Part shown: one piece after another, positions 46,863 through 61,822 of the stretch | How the letters are laid out: each line of letters opens with the position of its first letter | Numbering within the stretch: position 1 is the stretch's first letter | DNA from: a bacterium | Lineage (GTDB): Bacteria > Patescibacteriota > Minisyncoccia > Phycocordibacterales > UBA5272 | Direction: 5' to 3' | Assembly (NCBI GenBank): GCA_027482685.1 | Contig: JAIXVU010000009.1 | Span: 14,866 to 78,865, forward strand | DNA length: 64,000 bases | Notes under the pieces: generated by a model | Told to the model about the DNA's origin: nothing | The model's input: only the letters and a program-made list of their open reading frames with translations | The model's database searches: none | Translations under genes and position numbers: made by a program

Positions 46863-46920
46863 AAGTATATGATAGCAGGGAATGAATGAGGAGTGAGGTG
46901 GATAAGTGTAACGCTTTAGC

Positions 46921-46937
46921 TTCCGCCCACCTCCACA
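46921..46937 (+). repeat. 17-nt exact copy of the ssrA 3' terminus in inverted orientation (candidate distal att half-site of the ssrA island)
   Basis: TTCCGCCCACCTCCACA equals the last 17 nt of the minus-strand tmRNA gene at 56843-56859, but here it reads on the plus strand. Confidence 0.6.
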
Positions 46938-46981
46938 GAAATGACAAAACCACCCGATAGGTGGTTTTGTCATTTCTGTGG
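46933..46981. repeat. Perfect 22-bp inverted repeat with a 5-nt loop
   Basis: CCACAGAAATGACAAAACCACC-CGATA-GGTGGTTTTGTCATTTCTGTGG. Confidence 0.75.
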
Positions 46982-49617: not shown

Positions 49618-50283
49618 TTATTTTTTTACAACATCAATAATCTTACCGTTGATAAGGAAATCATCCTGGCTCGAAATATAAATTGGTTTATGTATTGAAT
49701 TACTTGATTCGGATATAAGAGATATTCTTCCAGACGCAATATCTCTGTGGTACTTTTTTATATTTGCGTATCCGTCGAGGATAGACAGTACATAGTCTCC
49801 AGACAATGGGTTTGTATGTGTAGGGTCAACCAACACAAGGTCTCCATCCTCAATGTTCTTGTCATTAATCTTTGCCTTGTTCATTGAGTCACCCTCAACC
49901 CATAACGCAAAGTAGTTTTTATTATTTCCTAACACCTTCTTGGAAACCTTTATGTAGCCCTCTATGTTCTCTTCTGCTGTTAGGGTAGCTAGACCAGCAT
50001 TTGCGGAACCTAGGATTGGAACACTTATAGAATCTAATCCTTTTTGAGACAGGAAGGGTGTCTTTATAAGTTTGTTTTCGTTTATTTCTATTGAACGAGC
50101 TTTATTAGTTGTTTTTTCGAGATAACCAAGTTTCTGAAGATTGTTAATATGGTACTGAGCAGCTGAGGGATGGGCCATAAACTCTGAAAAGTTGTTCGCT
50201 ATCTCCTCCAAAGAGGGAGCAATATTATTCTTTTGAGCATAGGAGACAACGAAATCATACACCATTTTTTGTTTTTTGGTCAT
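49618..50283 (-). CDS. LexA/CI-like S24 peptidase repressor
   Basis: An N-terminal wHTH (YDFVVSYAQKNNIAPSLEEIANN) is combined with C-terminal S24 motifs (ALWVEGDSM with the Ser nucleophile; Lys further downstream). Confidence 0.7.
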   Translation of the reverse strand: MTKKQKMVYDFVVSYAQKNNIAPSLEEIANNFSEFMAHPSAAQYHINNLQKLGYLEKTTNKARSIEINENKLIKTPFLSQKGLDSISVPILGSANAGLATLTAEENIEGYIKVSKKVLGNNKNYFALWVEGDSMNKAKINDKNIEDGDLVLVDPTHTNPLSGDYVLSILDGYANIKKYHRDIASGRISLISESSNSIHKPIYISSQDDFLINGKIIDVVKK

Positions 50284-50289
50284 AAAAGC

Positions 50290-50328
50290 TTGACTTACAG
50301 TTTCTTTTCAAATAATATATACAGTATA
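50290..50328 (+). promoter_or_regulatory. Sigma70-like promoter (TTGACT-17-TAATAT) with an overlapping palindrome TATACAGTATA, divergent from the repressor gene
   Basis: The -35 TTGACT is at 50290-50295 and the -10 TAATAT at 50313-50318. The palindrome at 50318-50328 is a candidate operator. Confidence 0.4.
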
Positions 50329-50380
50329 CCTCATGAGAGGTCTTAAATCAACATATTAATAACTAACTTTATCCACATAT

Positions 50381-50749
50381 ATGGGAGGAGGCTCAAAACG
50401 AAAAGAAGAAGATTCGCCAATAATCAGACGACCTAGGAAGGTTGTTTCATCAGGGGCTGGGGGTGGTAGTGGTTCAGAGGGAGGTGTATCAGTTGGGGAT
50501 ATTTGTATTCCATCATTTGAAACAGCTCTTAGCAATGACATCGTAGAATTGCAGGACAACGAAGGGGTATCTCTTCGAAAAAATACCACTGGTATCTATG
50601 AAGTAATAGTGCGTGCAAAAAAGGTCGGAGAACTGAATAAGAGAATATCAAAGATGGTTACAACTTGCTTAGATACGGGGGTTACTTATTCTGGTACGGT
50701 AATCGAGAAGAAACAGAATGAATTCCTCGCACGATTTATACGAAAATAA
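50381..50749 (+). CDS. Hypothetical Gly-rich protein (island cargo operon, gene 1)
   Basis: The 122-aa ORF overlaps the next gene by 32 nt. Confidence 0.4.
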   Translation: MGGGSKRKEEDSPIIRRPRKVVSSGAGGGSGSEGGVSVGDICIPSFETALSNDIVELQDNEGVSLRKNTTGIYEVIVRAKKVGELNKRISKMVTTCLDTGVTYSGTVIEKKQNEFLARFIRK

Positions 50750-51878
50750 GCCTCCTACTTTATTCAGTCAAATGTGTAAAGTTGCTGAAGGTAATTTCTA
50801 TGATATTCCAGCTAGTAAAGCTTCGGATGTAGTTGAGGTGTGTGATTCACTCGGTAGAAAAATAGTTACATGTAATAATCCACATTTACATGAGTTCATC
50901 GATGAAGTCGGAGGTAGTCTTTCTCTAGATATTGCATTGCCAGACGTTAAGATTGAATTACCTGCATACATCCCAATTCTTGATAAGAGAACAGCACGCA
51001 TGAATAGATTTTCTATCCCTGCCGGCATTAGTGTTTTGGGAATCACACTTCAAGATATATTAAAGTCTGGTGTTACTTATAAAGCCGGAGCGTGGCATGA
51101 GCAGAAAGAAATAAAATTTGATCTTGCTATTCGTGTGGCAGATGCTTTCTATAATAAGAAAGTCATACTGTTTGCTACTGGTCCAGATACAATGATTGAA
51201 TGGTGCTGGCACCAAAGAGATGAATGTAATATGTACAAATACATCAAGGCAATGGGGTTCGACTTAATGACAGGCATTAATTTTTCAGTCATTAAAGGAG
51301 AGTGTCCTTTTGGTCAATGTTTGAACCAAAAGAAGAGCCTGTTATCTGCCTCTCTAGCTATCGACGAGGGCATCCCTGCAGTGCCTCATATTTACACTAT
51401 AGACAAAGATGATATCAATACATGGAGTGCATACTTAGAAGCAAATCCACAAGTACGACTAGTTACAATGAACTGTCAGTTACAGAAAAAGCATATTGAT
51501 ATTCAAGCCTTAATAAAAGCAATCAATATTTTAATGGAGAAGTTTCCTGATTTACATTTTCTATTAACCGGCTTTCATCTGCATAGAGCTTCTGAGTTTG
51601 GTTCAAATCTTGAAAGAATACATTTTGCCGATAAGAGTTGTGTCAAAGATGCTCAAGCACACAGGAAATTCTTTTTTGACTTTGAAACCTTGAAGATTAG
51701 CAGGCATTACTGTGATGAGTCATATGAGAAAATCGCCACTCATAACATGAATTATAGAAGAATGTATATTGAAATTTTGAAACAACGGACACTTAAGAAA
51801 TACAAAATACCAGACGAGATTATTAAATTGATTGAAACAACTTTTCATCCTACGTTTCAAAATAAAAGCGTTTCGTAG
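50718..51878 (+). CDS. Hypothetical protein (island cargo operon, gene 2)
   Basis: 386-aa ORF with no confident family assignment. Confidence 0.45.
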   Translation: MNSSHDLYENKPPTLFSQMCKVAEGNFYDIPASKASDVVEVCDSLGRKIVTCNNPHLHEFIDEVGGSLSLDIALPDVKIELPAYIPILDKRTARMNRFSIPAGISVLGITLQDILKSGVTYKAGAWHEQKEIKFDLAIRVADAFYNKKVILFATGPDTMIEWCWHQRDECNMYKYIKAMGFDLMTGINFSVIKGECPFGQCLNQKKSLLSASLAIDEGIPAVPHIYTIDKDDINTWSAYLEANPQVRLVTMNCQLQKKHIDIQALIKAINILMEKFPDLHFLLTGFHLHRASEFGSNLERIHFADKSCVKDAQAHRKFFFDFETLKISRHYCDESYEKIATHNMNYRRMYIEILKQRTLKKYKIPDEIIKLIETTFHPTFQNKSVS

Positions 51879-51974
51879 TTTACTTAATACTACATAAGTA
51901 TTAGAATTAGGTCATACAATTGAATATAAGTAGCCTAAACCAGTGAGTAATCGCTGGCATGGTGAATAAGACCG

Positions 51975-52688
51975 TTGAAGATAAAAAACCCATCATGTGG
52001 GATTTGTCTTCAACGGCCATATCTGGAAACGGATATGGAGAGCGTAAGCTCTCACTCACGTGGTGGGCTTTTTGTATTCTCACCACTTACTAAACATTAT
52101 TTTATGACTACACAGAAAAATAAAAAACATAGTGTGTGGGGATGGGTGCTAGTAGGGTTTGGGGCACTGCTTTTACTTACTAAAGCGTTCTCGCTGGCGT
52201 TACTTGTCCTACTAGGGGGCTGCCTATTAATTATCAATAAAAAAGCAAAGGTTGGAGATGGTGACAAAGAGGTGTTGAAGGCTAAAGCGAGTAAGCAACG
52301 AAAATATCTTTTTGTTTCATTTGTAATTGCATACTTTAGCTTTTCTGTATTTAACTACTTCCAAAATCTTCCTGCAGAAGAAGTGAAGACTGTTGTTTCT
52401 CCAGAGCAAAAGCAAAAAGATCTTCAAACACTAAAAGAGACTATGGCTATTCTGACAGAAAACAAACTAGCCACTTCATACGAGTTTTCAGAAAATGCAA
52501 ATGTTGTTTATGTAAGTGGCAAGTGGTACGGCTTGACAGCTCAAGAAAAGAAAGAGTTGCTAACTAGTATTGGTAATGTAAAAGATGTAGCAACTGGATA
52601 TCGTTGGTTTGAAGTAAGAGATGCTTACTCAGATGAGTTGGTTGCTAAGGTGACTGCATTCACTGGCTCGGTGGAGATTTATAAGTAA
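51975..52688 (+). CDS. Hypothetical membrane protein (island cargo operon, gene 3)
   Basis: A TM segment WVLVGFGALLLLTKAFSLALLVLLGGCLLII is present. An alternative start is at 52104. A terminator hairpin GCACCCTCTCCATTGCTGGAGAGGGTGC follows at 52869-52896. Confidence 0.45.
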   Translation: MKIKNPSCGICLQRPYLETDMESVSSHSRGGLFVFSPLTKHYFMTTQKNKKHSVWGWVLVGFGALLLLTKAFSLALLVLLGGCLLIINKKAKVGDGDKEVLKAKASKQRKYLFVSFVIAYFSFSVFNYFQNLPAEEVKTVVSPEQKQKDLQTLKETMAILTENKLATSYEFSENANVVYVSGKWYGLTAQEKKELLTSIGNVKDVATGYRWFEVRDAYSDELVAKVTAFTGSVEIYK

Positions 52689-52923
52689 AAATATATTTGT
52701 TTGTTGGTAATTGCAAGAATTAGCGTTGTACTGAATGTACCACCAGAGAGAGTTGGCTACTTGGGTTCATAAATCTACCACCTGTTTAGGATTTCTTTTG
52801 ATGCGAGTGTTCCTACGATAACGCAGGAGTTAATGAATACGTAAATAATGTGGTATTCACCACAGTTGCACCCTCTCCATTGCTGGAGAGGGTGCTTTGT
52901 GTCTGCATAGAGTGTAGTCCTCT

Positions 52924-52952
52924 ATTGATTTTAGGTGCAGTTTCGTGTATAA
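52924..52952 (+). promoter_or_regulatory. Sigma70-like promoter TTGATT-17-TATAAT
   Basis: CTATTGATTTTAGGTGCAGTTTCGTGTATAATGCG lies ~355 nt upstream of the SF3-helicase gene. Confidence 0.4.
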
Positions 52953-53308
52953 TGCGAAGCAATTAAATATACATTTAGGTTGGTGCCGTAGAGTTTTATT
53001 TCAAGACTCGCTTGTTGCCCTTCCGAGATAAGGAATCAGTCTGTATAAACAGACCCTTGTTCGGGATGCAACTTGCGAGTTTTGTTTTTTTGCACCAGAC
53101 ACCTTTTCTTGTTCTCCACTACTAATAATAAGTGGTGCATCACACTTGATAACAACTTCTATGTCAAGAGACTTAGATAGATTCAAGAGCATATACTTTG
53201 ACGAATTCAAAGAAACATTGTCTGATGAAGACGCGGAGCGTAACGCTCGGTCGCTTCTTAATCTATATGTGGCTGTGTACGGCAGTGTTTTAGATACCGT
53301 CAAGGACT

Positions 53309-54853
53309 GTGCTTAGAATAACCTTCAATCATATGAATGAATTAAAGAAGGAGCAAATCGGTGCTTCTAAAACCAAATCCGATGTGAAAGGACGTTATAC
53401 AGTTTCCCAAGTATTCCCAGACGGGAGTATTGCAGACATGATGTATTCAAGAAATACATTTAGCGGAGTGTTCGCTATTACTAGGGGTGATGATAGCCAA
53501 TTACTCGATGAGCCACTGGTTGGCCAAGATGGCAACTTAACGTTGGATGTTGAGAAAGCATGTTTCAAGCTGGTGCCAACAAAGGTTGTGCGTGACTTGG
53601 TGGACAAGAACTTTATTAACCTCGCGTCAGGGCTCGAGGCGTATGGAACAGTACAAGAGTTATACAATCAAATTCGTGAACATATACAGAAGTATGTGGT
53701 TCTTGAAGATGTGCGTTTCTACGACGTTGCAACAGGATATGTTCTCATGTCTTGGGTGTTTGATAGGTTTAACACAGTACCGTACTTACGAGTAGTAGGA
53801 GATCTAGGCACTGGCAAGTCGAGATTTCTAGAAGTGGTCGGTAAGTTGTGTAATCGCTCGATGATGGCGAGCGGTTCAATCTCTATGGCTGCTGTATTTA
53901 GGACACTCGACCTTGTACAAGGGACATTAGTGTTTGACGAAGCAGACTTCAAATCATCAGACATGTCAGATGACATAGTTAAGATTCTGAACGGTGGTCA
54001 CAAAAAAGATACACCAGTTGTCAGAATGGAACTTGTTAATGATGTACTAAAGCCAACATCGTTCCGAGTGTTTGGTCCAAAGATACTTGGTTCTCGACGT
54101 AGCTTTGGTGATACTGCACTTGAGAGTAGGTGTATAACCCAAAGACTCTTTCCGATGAGACGAGTTGAAGTGCCTGTACACCTGCCACCTACGTTTGAGA
54201 CTGATTCTCAGATGTTCAGAAACAAGTTACAGATGTTTAGACTTAACACATTTCATCGTGTGAAAGAAGATGAGAGTTCTCTCTTAGGTCTTGAGTTTCC
54301 TCGGCTTAAGCAAACAGCCCTTGCGCTTACAAGTATCGTGAAGATGGTTGGTGATGAACAATTAAAATCAGTACTTGGCTTTCTTGTTGATTACGAGAAG
54401 TCATTACTAGATAGTGTTTCAACTGATATATTTGCAGACATCTTGCTGTGCATTGCACAGCTCATGGAGTTTGATGAGTATGTTAAAAAGTCAGGAGTGA
54501 TACATATGAACACTATTGCTAACGCCTTTAACAAGCAATTCTATGATGACCATGCAGAGCGTGAGACACGTACTGTCAATACTCGCGATGGAGTGCTCTC
54601 AATACCTGGACAACGTGTATCTGCACGAAAGATAGGTAGCTATGTTGATAAGCTTGGTATAGCAAAAATGCGTGACGGACACGGAGTATGTATCCCTCTT
54701 ATATCAGAGGCTCCAAGAATTATGCAAATGGTTGAGCGTCATGGACTAATGGAGATACTCAGTAATCTTCGTAAAGAAGAAGATTACAAAAAAACTAACC
54801 CTACTAAAGTTCCCATAAGTACGTTCGTTGAAACCACAGATGCACCTTTCTAA
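53309..54853 (+). CDS. SF3-helicase-like P-loop NTPase (D5 / P4-alpha C-terminal type replication protein)
   Basis: Walker A VVGDLGTGKS, Walker B LVFDEADF, and the post-Walker-B block IVKILNGGHKKDTPVVRMEL...FRVFGPKIL resemble the LTGGD-type motif of D5/P4 helicases. Confidence 0.5.
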   Translation: MLRITFNHMNELKKEQIGASKTKSDVKGRYTVSQVFPDGSIADMMYSRNTFSGVFAITRGDDSQLLDEPLVGQDGNLTLDVEKACFKLVPTKVVRDLVDKNFINLASGLEAYGTVQELYNQIREHIQKYVVLEDVRFYDVATGYVLMSWVFDRFNTVPYLRVVGDLGTGKSRFLEVVGKLCNRSMMASGSISMAAVFRTLDLVQGTLVFDEADFKSSDMSDDIVKILNGGHKKDTPVVRMELVNDVLKPTSFRVFGPKILGSRRSFGDTALESRCITQRLFPMRRVEVPVHLPPTFETDSQMFRNKLQMFRLNTFHRVKEDESSLLGLEFPRLKQTALALTSIVKMVGDEQLKSVLGFLVDYEKSLLDSVSTDIFADILLCIAQLMEFDEYVKKSGVIHMNTIANAFNKQFYDDHAERETRTVNTRDGVLSIPGQRVSARKIGSYVDKLGIAKMRDGHGVCIPLISEAPRIMQMVERHGLMEILSNLRKEEDYKKTNPTKVPISTFVETTDAPF

Positions 54854-55186: not shown

Positions 55187-56890
55187 GTGATAGCGAGTAC
55201 TTCGACCACAAAAATTATGTCTACATCAAACCAAAACAACACCAACTTAAAGTATGTTCTCTATGCACGTCGCTCAATTGTCGCGAATAAGACAGAGGAG
55301 GACAAAGGTATACCGTCCATTGAATCTCAACTAACTGAAGTTAGAGAACTTGCTCAAAATGAAGGGCGTGTAATTGTGAAAGAATTTAAAGAGACAATGT
55401 CAGCGAGTGAGCCAGGGATACGTCCAGAGTTTACTAAAATGATTGAGTACATTAAGTCTGGTAAAGCAAACGCAATCATTTGCTTCAAAATGGATAGATT
55501 AGCAAGAAACTCAGTTGATGAGGGAGTGATTAAACACTTACTTCAAAAAGGGAAAATACAGTGTATTCGTTCTACTGATAGAGAGTGGAGTACAGATGAC
55601 CACACACTCATCTGGTCAGTAGAGTTTGGAACTTCTACACAGTATTCTCGTGACTTGAAGAAGCACATTAAACGTGGGCAGAATGAAGCTCTACGGCGTG
55701 GGTTTAGGCCAGGGCTTGCTCCAATTGGCTACAAGAATACTAAGTACCGAGAGCAAGGCATGGACGAATCTATTGTGGTAGACGAAGAGAACTTTACGAT
55801 TCTACGCAAGATGTTTGATTATATTCTTTCGGGGAAGCATACACCATTCCAAGTGCTTAAAATCGCGACCGAGGAATGGGGAATTCGTTCTCGTAAAACA
55901 CGTCGCTACCCAAAAGGTAGACCTCTTTCAAAAGCTGCTTGGTATAGCATCCTTTCAAACCCATTCTATTATGGAGAGTTTGAGTACCCTATTGGGTCGG
56001 GGGTTTGGACGAAAGGAAAGCATAAACCACTCATTACACAGGGTGAGTTTGAAACAGTCCAGCAGATACTTAATAAAGATGCTCCTCGTCCTAAAACCCA
56101 CAATCATGCATACGTTGGTCTAATGCGTTGCGGACAATGTGGAGCTCGTGTTACTTGTGAAGCAAAGGTAAAGAAGCAGAAGAATGGTAATGTACATTAT
56201 TACTCTTATTATCATTGTACGGGGCAGGTCGACTCAAGCTGTACACAGAAGTCAGTTAGACAAGATGTCTTAGAGGAGCAAATAATCGAATTCTTTTCTT
56301 CGATGAAAATATCACACTCATTTCATGAGTGGGCTATTGCAGAACTTAAAAGTGAGTATGAGCGTGAGAGAAACGATAAGACGACCATCTTGTACAACCA
56401 GCATAGAGAGCATTTCAAGATAAAGGAAATGCTTGACCGGTTGTTTGACATGAGAGTTGCTGGGGAAATAGATTCTGATCGCTATCTTGAGGAGAAGGCA
56501 AGATTAGAAACTGAGGAGAGGAGATTAGCAGGACAGCTTGAGGTCATAAACACACGAGTTCAAACATGGGTTCATGACGCAAAACGCCTCATGACCTTCG
56601 CAGAACGAGTCATAGATGAGTTCAAGAACGGCACTATTGATAAAAAGAGGGCAATATTTGCATCTCTTGGAACAGAGCATGTCCTTTTAGACAGAAAGTT
56701 GACTGTAAAGACAGAAAAACCACTTCTTGTTATTCAAGAAATGGTTTCTGCTGCGAACGCAGTAGGTAAACCATTAGAACCTGCTACTTTCCTTAGTCTG
56801 CAAGGTCAAAATGGCAAAATACTACCTACTGGTCCACCCTTGTGGAGGTGGGCGGAATCGAACCGCCGTGTAATAAGGTATGAGATATAA
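55187..56890 (+). CDS. Large serine recombinase (phage-type integrase)
   Basis: The N-terminal resolvase catalytic domain (YARRSIV...SIESQ), the recombinase domain, the zinc ribbon CGQCGARVTC...YYSYYHC, and a coiled-coil are present. The 3' end overlaps the ssrA 3' end antisense. Confidence 0.8.
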   Translation: MIASTSTTKIMSTSNQNNTNLKYVLYARRSIVANKTEEDKGIPSIESQLTEVRELAQNEGRVIVKEFKETMSASEPGIRPEFTKMIEYIKSGKANAIICFKMDRLARNSVDEGVIKHLLQKGKIQCIRSTDREWSTDDHTLIWSVEFGTSTQYSRDLKKHIKRGQNEALRRGFRPGLAPIGYKNTKYREQGMDESIVVDEENFTILRKMFDYILSGKHTPFQVLKIATEEWGIRSRKTRRYPKGRPLSKAAWYSILSNPFYYGEFEYPIGSGVWTKGKHKPLITQGEFETVQQILNKDAPRPKTHNHAYVGLMRCGQCGARVTCEAKVKKQKNGNVHYYSYYHCTGQVDSSCTQKSVRQDVLEEQIIEFFSSMKISHSFHEWAIAELKSEYERERNDKTTILYNQHREHFKIKEMLDRLFDMRVAGEIDSDRYLEEKARLETEERRLAGQLEVINTRVQTWVHDAKRLMTFAERVIDEFKNGTIDKKRAIFASLGTEHVLLDRKLTVKTEKPLLVIQEMVSAANAVGKPLEPATFLSLQGQNGKILPTGPPLWRWAESNRRVIRYEI

Positions 56891-57356
56891 GTCTACTGTA
56901 CGTAGTTTGCTTACTTATAGAGTTTGCGAATTTGGCGATCTTCTTTGTCAAAGCTATTAATTTTATCATCACCGTACTGTATGTACGACTTTTCAAAAAT
57001 AGATGCTTTTCCTTGAAGCTCATCCAAATTCGCAAACTCTATGTTTTGCATGTATCGTCTAAAGCAAACGAAAGTGATACATGTATAGCATAATTACTTC
57101 GAACTAGTTGCTATGCAACACCTAGTTCTACATCTACTGTTATATTGCCCGCAGTCTATCCGTAGATACGAGAGAGAGGGACACCAGATCGGCCAGTATT
57201 TAGGCGAATGCTGGAACTAGACCTGCCATGTATGGCGAAGGAATAGCCTTACCAGTTGTTTTTGCAACATGGGCTCTCGAAAGGGTACGAGTTCTCGAGA
57301 AGTCTCGGTACAGCACATAGATCATATTCTTAGTATCGAAGCCAAAGATCACCCCC
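56843..57356 (-). ncRNA. ssrA: tmRNA (ssrA), unusually long at ~514 nt; CCA not encoded
   Basis: The 5' end GGGGGUGAUCUUUGGCUUCGA is consensus-like. The 3' tRNA-like domain is GGCGG-UUCGAUU-CCGCC followed by CACCUCC-A, and the acceptor has a G3:U wobble. It lies immediately downstream of smpB on the same strand. A candidate tag ORF GCA...GCAUUCGCCUAA would end in ...PAFA*. Confidence 0.65.
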
Positions 57357-61652: not shown

Positions 61653-61725
61653 GCATCCATAGCTCAGTTGGTAGAGCCGTCGTCTTATACACGACTGGTC
61701 CCTGGTTCGAGTCCAGGTGGATGCA
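61653..61725 (+). tRNA. tRNA-Ile(UAU); CCA not encoded
   Basis: The acceptor GCATCCA pairs with TGGATGC. The D-arm is TAGCTCAGTTGGTAGAGC. The anticodon stem GTCGT/ACGAC carries loop CTTATAC, giving anticodon TAT. The T-loop is TTCGAGT. Confidence 0.7.
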
Positions 61726-61822
61726 CTTTGGGGATAAGGTGCAGATGAAATCAAAACATGATTTAGTGGACATGCTCTTGTTCCTGATTGCTCGTGTAGA
61801 TGAGAATATGTAACCAGTTAGA

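Follow-up and report, generated by a model that had tools for sequence, protein, structure and literature searches.

A repressor-linked gene pair encoding a HIRAN-like protein and a TIM-barrel enzyme, a candidate damage-derepressed defence module, in a serine-recombinase island of a Saccharibacteria-like genome

The locus raised the question of what a set of genes without a recognisable family does between a repressor gene and the recombinase of a small genomic island. It lies in a stretch of 64,000 nucleotides (the window), for which a sequence-only reading had proposed a three-gene operon carried as island cargo under a repressor-controlled promoter. All three reading frames were located on the forward strand: ORF1 (50381-50749; 122 aa), ORF2 (50718-51878; 386 aa), which overlaps ORF1 by 32 nt, and ORF3 as annotated (51975-52688; 237 aa from a TTG). 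The proposal that none belongs to a recognisable family was borne out by zero matches in Pfam, PHROGs, PADLOC and NCBIfam; against the PADLOC-DB 2.0 models no match was obtained for any of the three at E values up to 1. ORF1 and ORF2 are referred to below as the pair, related loci by L-numbers, and proteins of the family by P-numbers.

The conserved unit was found to consist of ORF1, ORF2 and the adjacent repressor, two genes and not three beyond the switch. An ORF1 homologue stood immediately upstream of every ORF2 homologue for which upstream sequence was available (23/23 distinct loci), with overlaps of 4-38 nt, and the pairing held also for DUF4417-type relatives of about 22% identity. Because ORF1 has 38 homologues and ORF2 has 16 close ones and, by profile search, 582 remote ones, both are certainly real genes, as judged from their conservation. 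The trio was not found to travel together. Among 39 loci a single homologue of ORF3 was recovered (L023:196-687; 36% identity over 111 aa), placed elsewhere in its element and not syntenic, and the third genes of the other loci were unrelated to ORF3. ORF3, not being conserved with the pair, was therefore dropped as a third component.

The gap between ORF2 and ORF3 also spoke against a single three-gene operon. It contains a full-length LOOT RNA (Rfam RF03000; 51932-52053, forward strand; model positions 1-121; 96.7 bits with a gathering threshold of 46.4), which is not part of the pair, and a hairpin followed by a T-run at 52051-52067. Because the 237-aa frame as annotated begins within the RNA, its first 43 codons are probably spurious and the start is probably the ATG at 52104, which leaves a gap of 225 nt after ORF2. 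ORF3 (52104-52688, forward strand) would then encode a membrane protein of 194 aa, in which a hydrophobic segment (about residues 11-48) precedes the C-terminal domain, and is a variable accessory gene. The LOOT RNA was also present in L001, L011, L023, L025 and L027. Counting this window, the RNA lay 42-56 nt upstream of a same-strand ORF in five of the six element lineages (here 50 nt ahead of the probable ATG of ORF3); the downstream start in L011 is ambiguous. The strong hairpin said to close the operon was confirmed at 52868-52895 on the forward strand (12-bp stem with 8 GC pairs, then TTTGTGTCTG), where, as an intrinsic-terminator-like element, it ends the ORF3 transcription unit. Beyond the hairpin, at 52925-52953, lies a promoter-like site for the next operon (TTGATT-17-TATAAT, 10/12 matched).

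Divergent from the pair, on the reverse strand at 49618-50283, is a gene for a LexA-like repressor of 221 aa. Its N-terminal LexA DNA-binding domain (PF01726, 2.7e-9) and self-cleaving S24 peptidase domain (PF00717, 5.9e-22) place it in the LexA family, and it has an Ala-Gly (..SANAGLA..), the serine motif GDSM and a Lys further downstream. The putative divergent promoter/operator region (50284-50380, read on the forward strand) holds a -35/-10-like site at 50290-50318 (promoter scan) and the palindrome TATAC-a-GTATA. The same intergenic sequence, between 49618-50283 and the ORF1 start at 50381, was near-identical in L023 and similar in L001, with the palindromes conserved. Immediately ahead of the ORF1 ATG is a putative site matching the DnaA-box consensus, TTATCCACA (50369-50377); the motif TTATCC[AC]CA is repeated upstream of ORF1, on the same strand, in six element lineages. 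From these domains and this arrangement the LexA-like protein is predicted to be the DNA-damage switch of the cassette.

Switches of this type were the rule at related loci. A damage-type switch stood beside the pair in 16 of about 21 informative loci, LexA-like in 4 lineages and an HTH_3 plus Peptidase_M78 pair, which is not found in this window, in 12 lineages. LexA-like orthologues adjoin the pair in L001, L004 and L023; in L004 the pair lies directly downstream of the LexA-like gene and both are co-directional. Repressor inactivation in response to ssDNA or RecA is established for the LexA, ImmR/ImmA, IrrE/DdrO and CapH/CapP families, and pairs of the XRE plus M78 type lift the repression of immune operons, damage regulons or mobile elements upon ssDNA sensing (PMC13228613). 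The same repressor-plus-pair unit was present without a recombinase within 10 kb at L036 and L037; the repressor therefore belongs to the cassette and not to the island. The earlier proposal of island cargo under the island's repressor thus stood for the location and fell for the repressor. As to whether integrase and repressor genes always adjoin the genes, a switch did so at most of the informative loci, and a recombinase was missing within 10 kb at L036, L037 and L039.

The carrier in this window is a serine-recombinase island of about 7-10 kb at the ssrA gene of a Saccharibacteria-like genome. The large serine recombinase (55187-56890, forward strand) has Resolvase, Recombinase and Zn_ribbon_recom domains and matches the phrog_95 integrase (6e-63). 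Its final 51 nt overlap, convergently, the 3' end of the tmRNA gene (56840-57356, reverse strand; Rfam RF00023, 65.2 bits with a gathering threshold of 47), which was missed by ARAGORN; matching geometry was seen with tRNAs in L011 and L020. On this arrangement ssrA is the predicted integration target and right boundary of the island. No convincing direct repeats were found as att sites. An inverted copy of the tmRNA 3' end (20/22) occurs at 46916-46937. Outside the cassette, the island encodes a P-loop protein of 514 aa (53309-54853, forward strand) with weak MCM P-loop similarity and a 60% identical orthologue beside the recombinase in L001, a candidate island replication helicase or initiator. 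None of the defence genes matched in PADLOC at related loci lies in this island.

ORF1 (50381-50749) had been noted as Gly-rich, and it does contain a glycine linker; beyond that, Foldseek assigned it a HIRAN-like fold. A conserved peptide at the N-terminus is joined by a disordered, Gly-rich linker to a HIRAN-like beta domain that takes up residues 38-122 at the C-terminus. In alignments A2 and A3 the peptide reads MGSGxNRKxxDxPIIRxPK, with M1 and G2 invariant, and the C-terminal domain has two invariant Cys (C42 and C96). The Met-Gly start was retained even in the partners of ORF2 relatives of about 22% identity (MGSG, MGRG, MGTN). The AF2 model had pLDDT >90 over residues 40-122, and when it was searched against the PDB with Foldseek the best 13 matches were all HLTF/Rad5 HIRAN domains (probability 1.00; E 1e-3 to 9e-3), with rmsd of 3.1-4.5 A across about 90 columns. 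At the level of sequence, ORF1 scored under the gathering score of Pfam HIRAN (PF08797; 13.8 bits vs 24.7, E 0.053), sub-threshold matches to this family occurred in just 2 of 34 homologues, and no HIRAN entry was recovered by a PDB profile search with alignment A3. The C-terminal domain is thus HIRAN-like in its predicted fold and not in its sequence.

ORF2 (50718-51878) was modelled with confidence as a TIM barrel (pLDDT 88, pTM 0.86). Its likeness to TGT enzymes, faintly suspected before, was modest and confined to the predicted fold. Against the PDB, tRNA-guanine transglycosylase was the best Foldseek match (TM about 0.45, E 2e-4), slightly above generic TIM barrels; against BFVD the best matches were phage DpdA-like proteins annotated 'queuine tRNA-ribosyltransferase', and AP-endonuclease-family TIM barrels were among the weaker viral matches. 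Alignment A1 shows conserved polar residues at the C-terminal end of the strands that form the barrel (D89, D157/E161, N188/S190, E195, H224/Y226, N252/Q254, G285), D89 and D157 being placed after strands 1 and 2 in the model; in the catalytic Asp pair of TGT/DpdA the general acid comes after an early strand. Conserved Cys are C20, C42, C52, C196 and also C253, and the family has a single invariant His. D305 aligns with the nucleophile Asp of TGT/DpdA (DMFD / VDSSSW motif); the position is D, E or N in the family, and its conservation is lost in a wider alignment of 118 sequences. The GxDhF-like segment GFDLMTGINFSV, cited earlier as a trace of TGT, was dropped, its Asp (D182) being variable in alignment A1.

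Neither Pfam nor NCBIfam gave a match of ORF2 to TGT (PF01702). Searches of PDB sequences and profiles with alignments A1, A4 and A3 returned chance matches only (sortase, AcrIC9, BNR). An hhalign comparison of A4 with an alignment of DpdA from 7 phages was co-linear yet non-significant (probability 3.4%, E 0.013), and the C-terminal CxCxxC...H zinc motif was absent from ORF2 and from alignment A1. A link to a catalogued family came through intermediate sequences. The A1 profile reached P0099-P0162 at E 1e-29 to 1e-15, and these proteins match PF14386 (DUF4417), as do 47 of the 118 members of the ORF2 family (best E 7e-11); the ORF2 of this window gave nothing against PF14386 in Pfam even at E 0.1. 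By transitive profile search, ORF2 is accordingly assigned as a homologue of the uncharacterised DUF4417, in which it would form a divergent branch of the superfamily. No functional study of DUF4417/PF14386 was found in literature searches, and the cluster names of homologues added no annotation. Searches of 50,697 phage genomes and of IMG/VR returned no homologue of ORF2 or of the DUF4417-type subfamily; with P0119 as query the phage and viral genomes gave one weak match, and the tblastn search with E. coli TGT returned mostly bacterial-type tgt genes.

The distribution of the cassette was rare and patchy across phyla, comprising Saccharibacteria MAGs and contigs with Por_Secre_tail genes (typical of Bacteroidota). 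The close ORF2 family amounts to 16 clusters at 90% identity out of 5.8 billion proteins. At L036, L037 and L039 the intact pair had 10 kb free of recombinase genes to each side, and L040 and L041 also carry it without a recombinase. Such recombinase-free cassettes were found among housekeeping genes, and their contexts differ between related genomes (L036 vs L037). Strong PADLOC matches were found near the pair in 6 of the loci tested. An AbiLi-like gene is directly divergent from the pair in L006, L015 and L039 (E 1e-76 to 7e-84); further neighbours were AbiZ-like and GajA-like genes in L006, PDC-S27 in L039 (8e-201), PDC-S02 in L036 (2e-143) and a dGTPase in L018 (5e-70). In L010 a Type III REase with a methylase lies beside the pair. 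Guilt by association with defence was judged here from about 8 loci and not by a statistical census. The earlier suggestion of an undescribed defence-like system was a fair reading, the pair being uncharacterised, not in PADLOC, and placed among known or candidate defence genes outside mobile elements.

The preferred explanation, which is held tentatively and may quite possibly be correct, is that ORF1, ORF2 and the adjacent repressor form a horizontally mobile, self-contained and new damage-derepressed module of DNA-targeting conflict or defence. The pair is a credible candidate for a new system of defence against phages or mobile elements. At rest, the architecture suggests, the divergent promoter would be silenced by the LexA-like repressor, and in relatives by an XRE repressor guarded by an M78 peptidase of the ImmA/CapP type. 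By analogy with the known switches, DNA damage or phage replication would generate ssDNA or RecA filaments and the repressor would be inactivated. ORF1 and ORF2, given their overlap, would be co-produced by translational coupling. The HIRAN-like domain of ORF1 may bind free DNA 3' ends or ss/ds junctions, while its N-terminal peptide, on the flexible glycine tether, may engage ORF2. The ORF2 barrel, with its conserved acidic active-site face, would, to go by its modelled fold, remove or exchange bases in the bound DNA, and the resulting abasic or altered sites might stop the invader from replicating, or the cell itself as an abortive outcome. A precedent is the proposal that small HIRAN proteins of bacteria act as partners that regulate HipA-type toxins (bioRxiv 10.1101/2021.04.14.439929).

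A more far-reaching form of the defence reading, in which the cassette would be the first member of a new family of defence systems, is offered with considerable doubt. A HIRAN-like sensor of 3' ends would here choose the sites at which a damage-derepressed TGT-fold enzyme attacks DNA bases, excising or exchanging them, and DUF4417 would gain its first function. In the most unusual version, the alpha-amine of the Met-Gly terminus of ORF1 could serve as the incoming nucleophile at C1', giving a covalent DNA-protein adduct. Nucleophiles at the N-terminus are found in Fpg (Pro), T4 endonuclease V (Thr) and SRAP/YedK (Cys), which provide analogues for the ORF1 N-terminus. Two points of general experience count against a damage-switched defence function: many defence systems are constitutively expressed, and ordinary mobile-element functions are also placed under ImmR/ImmA and LexA switches.

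Several other functions were weighed against the defence module. The pair might modify self DNA as a means of anti-restriction, a DpdA-like ORF2 swapping a base in the DNA of the element or host after induction, ORF1 taking the place of the ParB-like helper, and the excised element being protected in its new host. The TGT/DpdA-like fold with its phage matches agrees with this, as do the position of the pair in an induced operon of lytic direction and the DNA methylases that often neighbour it. DpdA requires the ParB-like ATPase DpdB (PMC10164549), and in actinophages dpdA directly follows a small ParB-like gene, the same layout of a small DNA-binding partner and then a barrel. Self-modification is nonetheless unlikely: no QueC, QueD, QueE, FolE or other base-synthesis gene was present in the annotated neighbourhoods of the pair, whereas phage dpdA lies inside such clusters; searches of the phage genomes and IMG/VR found no homologue; ORF2 lacks the zinc motif; and the cassette occurs in chromosomal defence islands without a mobile element. 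If instead the module served repair or tolerance of DNA damage and was carried like umuDC/rumAB, the HIRAN-like protein would recognise 3' ends that are stalled or damaged, while excision of damaged bases would fall to the barrel, which might also or clean blocked ends like Endo IV/UvdE. The consistent placement of the pair under LexA-like or IrrE/DdrO-like switches, its co-directional position behind the LexA-like gene of L004, and the AP-endonuclease-family barrels among the viral fold matches would fit, and eukaryotic HIRAN domains are cited in PMC11706625 as acting at stalled forks. Repair is distinctly unlikely, however, with so sparse and patchy a distribution, with variable contexts that are mostly mobile elements and defence islands, and with one invariant His in place of the multi-His metal site typical of Endo IV.

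An addiction or toxin-antitoxin-like stabiliser, in which ORF2 would be a toxic enzyme neutralised by ORF1 through its N-terminal peptide as an inhibitor, so keeping the small integrative element in the population, is very unlikely. Two overlapping genes with the small protein first, the minimal elements L019 and L020 with little beyond switch, pair and recombinase, and the precedent of HIRAN-containing putative antitoxins of Hip kinases are in its favour. Toxin-antitoxin operons, however, are normally autoregulated by the antitoxin and not run by a separate damage-sensing repressor; a pair repressed at rest is impossible for an addiction module; and the cassette is found outside mobile elements too. 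Also considered was an accessory role of the pair in the serine-recombinase element, either in the directionality of recombination or in replication. The pair is first in line downstream of the switch, and many Saccharibacteria loci have a serine recombinase close by, which adjoins ORF2 directly in L020 and L022. Such a role is hardly tenable; it was rejected as largely refuted by the recombinase-free cassettes, and a directionality factor would not be expected to be a TIM-barrel enzyme whose active-site face is conserved.

Should the defence module be real, it would supply the first functional context for DUF4417, a catalogued and unstudied family of hundreds of members, and for stand-alone bacterial HIRAN-like proteins, and a base-targeting TGT-fold effector would join the damage-derepressed immune operons. 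Ultra-small Saccharibacteria (CPR) genomes carry compact serine-recombinase elements, targeting tRNA or tmRNA genes, that are built around the cassette. The hypothesis is directly testable because the cassette has only two to four genes and is easily synthesised.

Of the known systems, TGT and DpdA appear to resemble ORF2 in the (beta/alpha)8 barrel, for which TGT and phage DpdA-like proteins are the best structural matches, in acidic residues after barrel strands, like their catalytic Asp residues, and in a small nucleic-acid-binding partner (putative for ORF1) encoded directly upstream. ORF2 differs from them in having no significant sequence or profile similarity and no zinc site, and in its unconserved putative nucleophile position; from DpdA it differs further in that 7-deazaguanine synthesis genes are not alongside, its partner is HIRAN-like and not ParB-like, and the pair is under a damage switch. 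Among DUF4417 proteins, the PF14386-positive P0119 has the same four-gene architecture, whereas ORF2 is on a divergent branch, carries an additional N-terminal region containing Cys, and has a stand-alone small protein as its partner instead of a ParB fusion. ORF1 is HIRAN-like in the fold of its C-terminal 85 residues and recalls HipN, one of the bacterial HIRAN partners of HipA-like kinases (HipN/HipL), in being small and two-part (a putative partner-binding part plus HIRAN) and in having its gene beside an enzyme gene in a mobile or defence context. It differs from HIRAN proteins in falling under the Pfam threshold and in its invariant Cys pair and invariant Met-Gly peptide, features not described for them, and from HipN/HipL in that its partner enzyme is a TIM barrel and not a kinase. 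Operons under regulators of the CapH/CapP, ImmR/ImmA, IrrE/DdrO and LexA types likewise stand next to, and divergent from, their repressor gene, which may or may not come with a peptidase gene. In the literature found, effectors of the HIRAN-like plus DUF4417-like kind are not among the systems reported for these regulators. The cassette differs from XRE plus M78 operons in that the switch of this window is of the one-protein LexA type.

ORF calls placed the three genes of the claimed operon where the sequence-only reading had put them: ORF1 (50381-50749, +, 122 aa), ORF2 (50718-51878, +, 386 aa) and ORF3 (51975-52688, +, 237 aa from a TTG start), with the 32-nt overlap of ORF1 and ORF2 that it had reported. 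None of the products matched a model in Pfam, PHROGs, PADLOC or NCBIfam. Close homologues of ORF2 (n = 16) were 38-72% identical to it, and 582 relatives at E up to 1e-3 came from a profile search that covered 1.84 billion representative proteins. The ORF1-ORF2 pairing is strictly conserved: an ORF1 homologue lay directly 5' of ORF2 in every locus with upstream sequence, overlapping it by 26-38 nt. Two remote ORF2 relatives of ~22% identity (P0099 and P0119) also had a small upstream partner, with overlaps of 4 and 14 nt; the partner in L040 has the same build as ORF1, while that in L041 has only the Met-Gly start in common with it.

The operon of three genes was reduced to a conserved unit of two. 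From the stop of ORF2 to 52104, where the third ORF has its first ATG, there are 225 nt, in which a full-length LOOT RNA lies (Rfam RF03000; 51932-52053, +; 96.7 bits, gathering score 46.4), and a hairpin with a T-run is found in the same gap at 52051-52067. The 237-aa ORF thus crosses an RNA gene with its first 43 codons; the real ORF3 product is likely a 194-aa protein starting at ATG 52104, with a hydrophobic stretch near residues 11-48. A homologue of ORF3 was found in one of 39 fetched loci (L023:196-687), not adjoining the pair, and the third genes at other loci were mutually unrelated. The hairpin claimed at 52869-52896 was located at 52868-52895 (12-bp stem, 8 GC pairs), and a good promoter-like site lies 3' of it (52925-52953).

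The pair is most strongly associated with a DNA-damage-type switch. In the window a LexA-like gene (49618-50283; LexA_DNA_bind 2.7e-9, Peptidase_S24 5.9e-22) is divergent from the pair. Such a gene adjoins the pair in four lineages (window, L001, L004, L023), divergently in three and co-directionally in L004; in twelve lineages a divergent HTH_3 repressor with Peptidase_M78 adjoins it. XRE-M78 pairs (ImmR/ImmA, IrrE/DdrO, CapH/CapP) sense ssDNA and thereupon lift the repression of immune operons, damage regulons or mobile elements (PMC13228613). At L036 and L037/38 the four-gene cassette lies amid housekeeping genes; its flanks differ between the two genomes, and a recombinase is absent within 10 kb. 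Por_Secre_tail genes, typical of Bacteroidota, are present on these contigs. Because the cassette is intact there, the repressor is a component of it and not merely the lysogeny switch of an island, as it had been taken to be when the genes were read as island cargo.

The LexA-like proteins of the window and of L023:5011-5676 are 83% identical, while the adjacent ORF2 and ORF1 proteins are 51% and 42% identical, which indicates that switch and effector pair have been shuffled as modules. A perfect match to the DnaA-box consensus, TTATCCACA (or TTATCCCCA), was seen 5' of ORF1 on the same strand in six element lineages (window 50369-50377, +; L001:7640; L011:6327 and 6338; L023:5761; L025:9511; L027:8277). 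In the LexA-type loci it stands directly before the ORF1 ATG, at the position that a ribosome-binding site would take; the 64-kb window holds only two copies.

The model of ORF2 (pLDDT 88, pTM 0.86) is a (beta/alpha)8 barrel that carries a beta-hairpin insert and, at its N-terminus, a helical region containing Cys. Nearly all of the 50 best Foldseek matches in the PDB were bacterial tRNA-guanine transglycosylase (TGT; E 2e-4, TMq about 0.45, ~360 aligned columns), with shorter generic TIM barrels scoring just slightly below; the best matches in the viral library were DpdA-like phage 'queuine tRNA-ribosyltransferase' proteins (E 1e-5). The barrel strands have invariant polar residues (D89, D157/E161, N188/S190, E195, H224/Y226, N252/Q254, G285) at their C-terminal ends, usually the active-site face of TIM-barrel enzymes, and the conservation is active-site-like. 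Unlike TGT, ORF2 lacks the zinc motif, and the position aligned with the TGT nucleophile is not conserved in the family. The faintly TGT-like motif that had been mentioned for the 386-aa protein was rejected, as its D182 varies in the family. An hhalign comparison of the family with a phage DpdA alignment built here gave a probability of 3.4%, so that kinship to TGT/DpdA is not shown at the sequence level. The window's ORF2 has no Pfam match of its own; 47 of 118 family members match DUF4417 (PF14386; best E 7e-11), which makes ORF2 a divergent branch of this uncharacterised superfamily, for which the literature searched reports no function.

ORF1 consists of a conserved N-terminal peptide (MGSGxNRKxxDxPIIRxPK, M1 and G2 invariant), a disordered Gly-rich linker and a C-terminal domain with two invariant Cys. 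The top 13 PDB matches of the modelled C-terminal domain (pLDDT above 90) were HIRAN domains of HLTF and Rad5. The Pfam HIRAN match was sub-threshold (E 0.053) and a PDB profile search did not recover HIRAN, so 'HIRAN-like' is meant at the level of the predicted fold.

The window's serine recombinase (55187-56890, +) is convergent into the 3' end of a tmRNA gene (56840-57356, -; Rfam RF00023, 65.2 bits; missed by ARAGORN), overlapping it by 51 nt. Its last 17 codons cross this end, which places the island at ssrA; the same geometry occurs with tRNA genes in L011 and L020. On this basis the island holds at least the LexA-like gene, ORF1, ORF2, LOOT, ORF3, a 56-aa ORF, a 514-aa P-loop protein, a 60-aa ORF and the recombinase. 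The P-loop protein (514-528 aa) is kept beside the recombinase (window 53309-54853, +; L001:1841-3394; L027:1798-3384); its sole likeness is a weak MCM-like P-loop (residues 157-195), with no family assignment. It constitutes an orphan family of its own and is probably the replication helicase or initiator of the element. A 20/22-nt copy of the tmRNA 3' end (TTAGCTTCCGCCCACCTCCACA) was seen at 46916-46937 (+), followed by a strong palindromic terminator (~46939-46976). The copy is 9.9 kb to the left of the tmRNA gene and inverted relative to it; simple integration would give a direct repeat. It could be the other end of the island, in which case the 227-aa and M23-peptidase genes would belong to the island too, or could reflect a past inversion. 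A tRNA-Ile with anticodon TAT, uncommon in bacteria, is present at 61653-61726 (+).

LOOT RNA occurs once in the window, within the island, and in five related Saccharibacteria serine-recombinase elements (L001:4695-4812, -; L011:3866-3993; L023:39-157; L025:13679-13799; L027:4670-4787); none was found in the non-Saccharibacteria loci examined. It lies 42-56 nt 5' of a same-strand ORF of variable identity in 5/6 lineages, the downstream start in L011 being ambiguous. Rfam classes it as an sRNA; it looks more like a 5' leader or cis-regulatory element of mobile elements than like an sRNA that stands alone.

The close family is hosted by Candidatus Saccharibacteria MAGs, in which the cassettes ride small elements with a large serine recombinase. 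At loci without an adjacent repressor the neighbours of the pair are defence genes by PADLOC. An AbiLi-like ATPase (E 1e-76 to 7e-84) is directly divergent from the pair at L006:6000-7268, L015:135-1421 and L039:8545-9825, and may be an alternative partner or controller instead of a chance neighbour. PADLOC also called AbiZ-like and GajA-like genes (L006), PDC-S27 (L039), PDC-S02 (L036), a dGTPase (L018) and a Type III restriction enzyme with a methylase (L010).

The analysis shows a pair that is conserved and overlaps, a damage-type repressor next to it, the folds, residue conservation like that of an active site, and neighbourhoods of defence genes and mobile elements. These are consistent with a conflict or defence module, a tentative reading to which somewhat less than even weight is given. 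Damage- or phage-derived ssDNA would inactivate the repressor, and ORF1 and ORF2 would then be co-expressed. The HIRAN-like domain of ORF1 may bind DNA 3' ends while its tethered peptide engages ORF2, whose TGT-fold barrel would remove or exchange bases in the bound DNA and block replication of invader or cell; moderate fold similarity is what suggests this last biochemical step. That the cassette is instead an SOS-type repair module seems improbable, an addiction module more so, and a factor for directionality or replication, which the loci without a recombinase largely refute, would be very surprising.

DpdA-like self-modification for anti-restriction is unlikely, if less so, and is supported by parallels with ParB. 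In the actinophage dpdA loci L032-L035 (phages of Mycobacterium, Arthrobacter, Gordonia and Rhodococcus) a ~200-aa ParB-like gene is closely followed by the DpdA-like gene; the two abut or overlap in three of the four loci, and in L032 a 40-aa ORF separates them. This layout, a small DNA-binding partner followed by a barrel enzyme, mirrors ORF1-ORF2. Against self-modification, no base-synthesis genes accompany the cassette in the annotated neighbourhoods, and the searches run found no homologue in viral contigs or phage genomes. Both the regulatory logic and the type of island belong to kinds already known; the two effectors (HIRAN-like plus DUF4417/TGT-fold) are absent from PADLOC, and a new defence family is a realistic prospect for the cassette.
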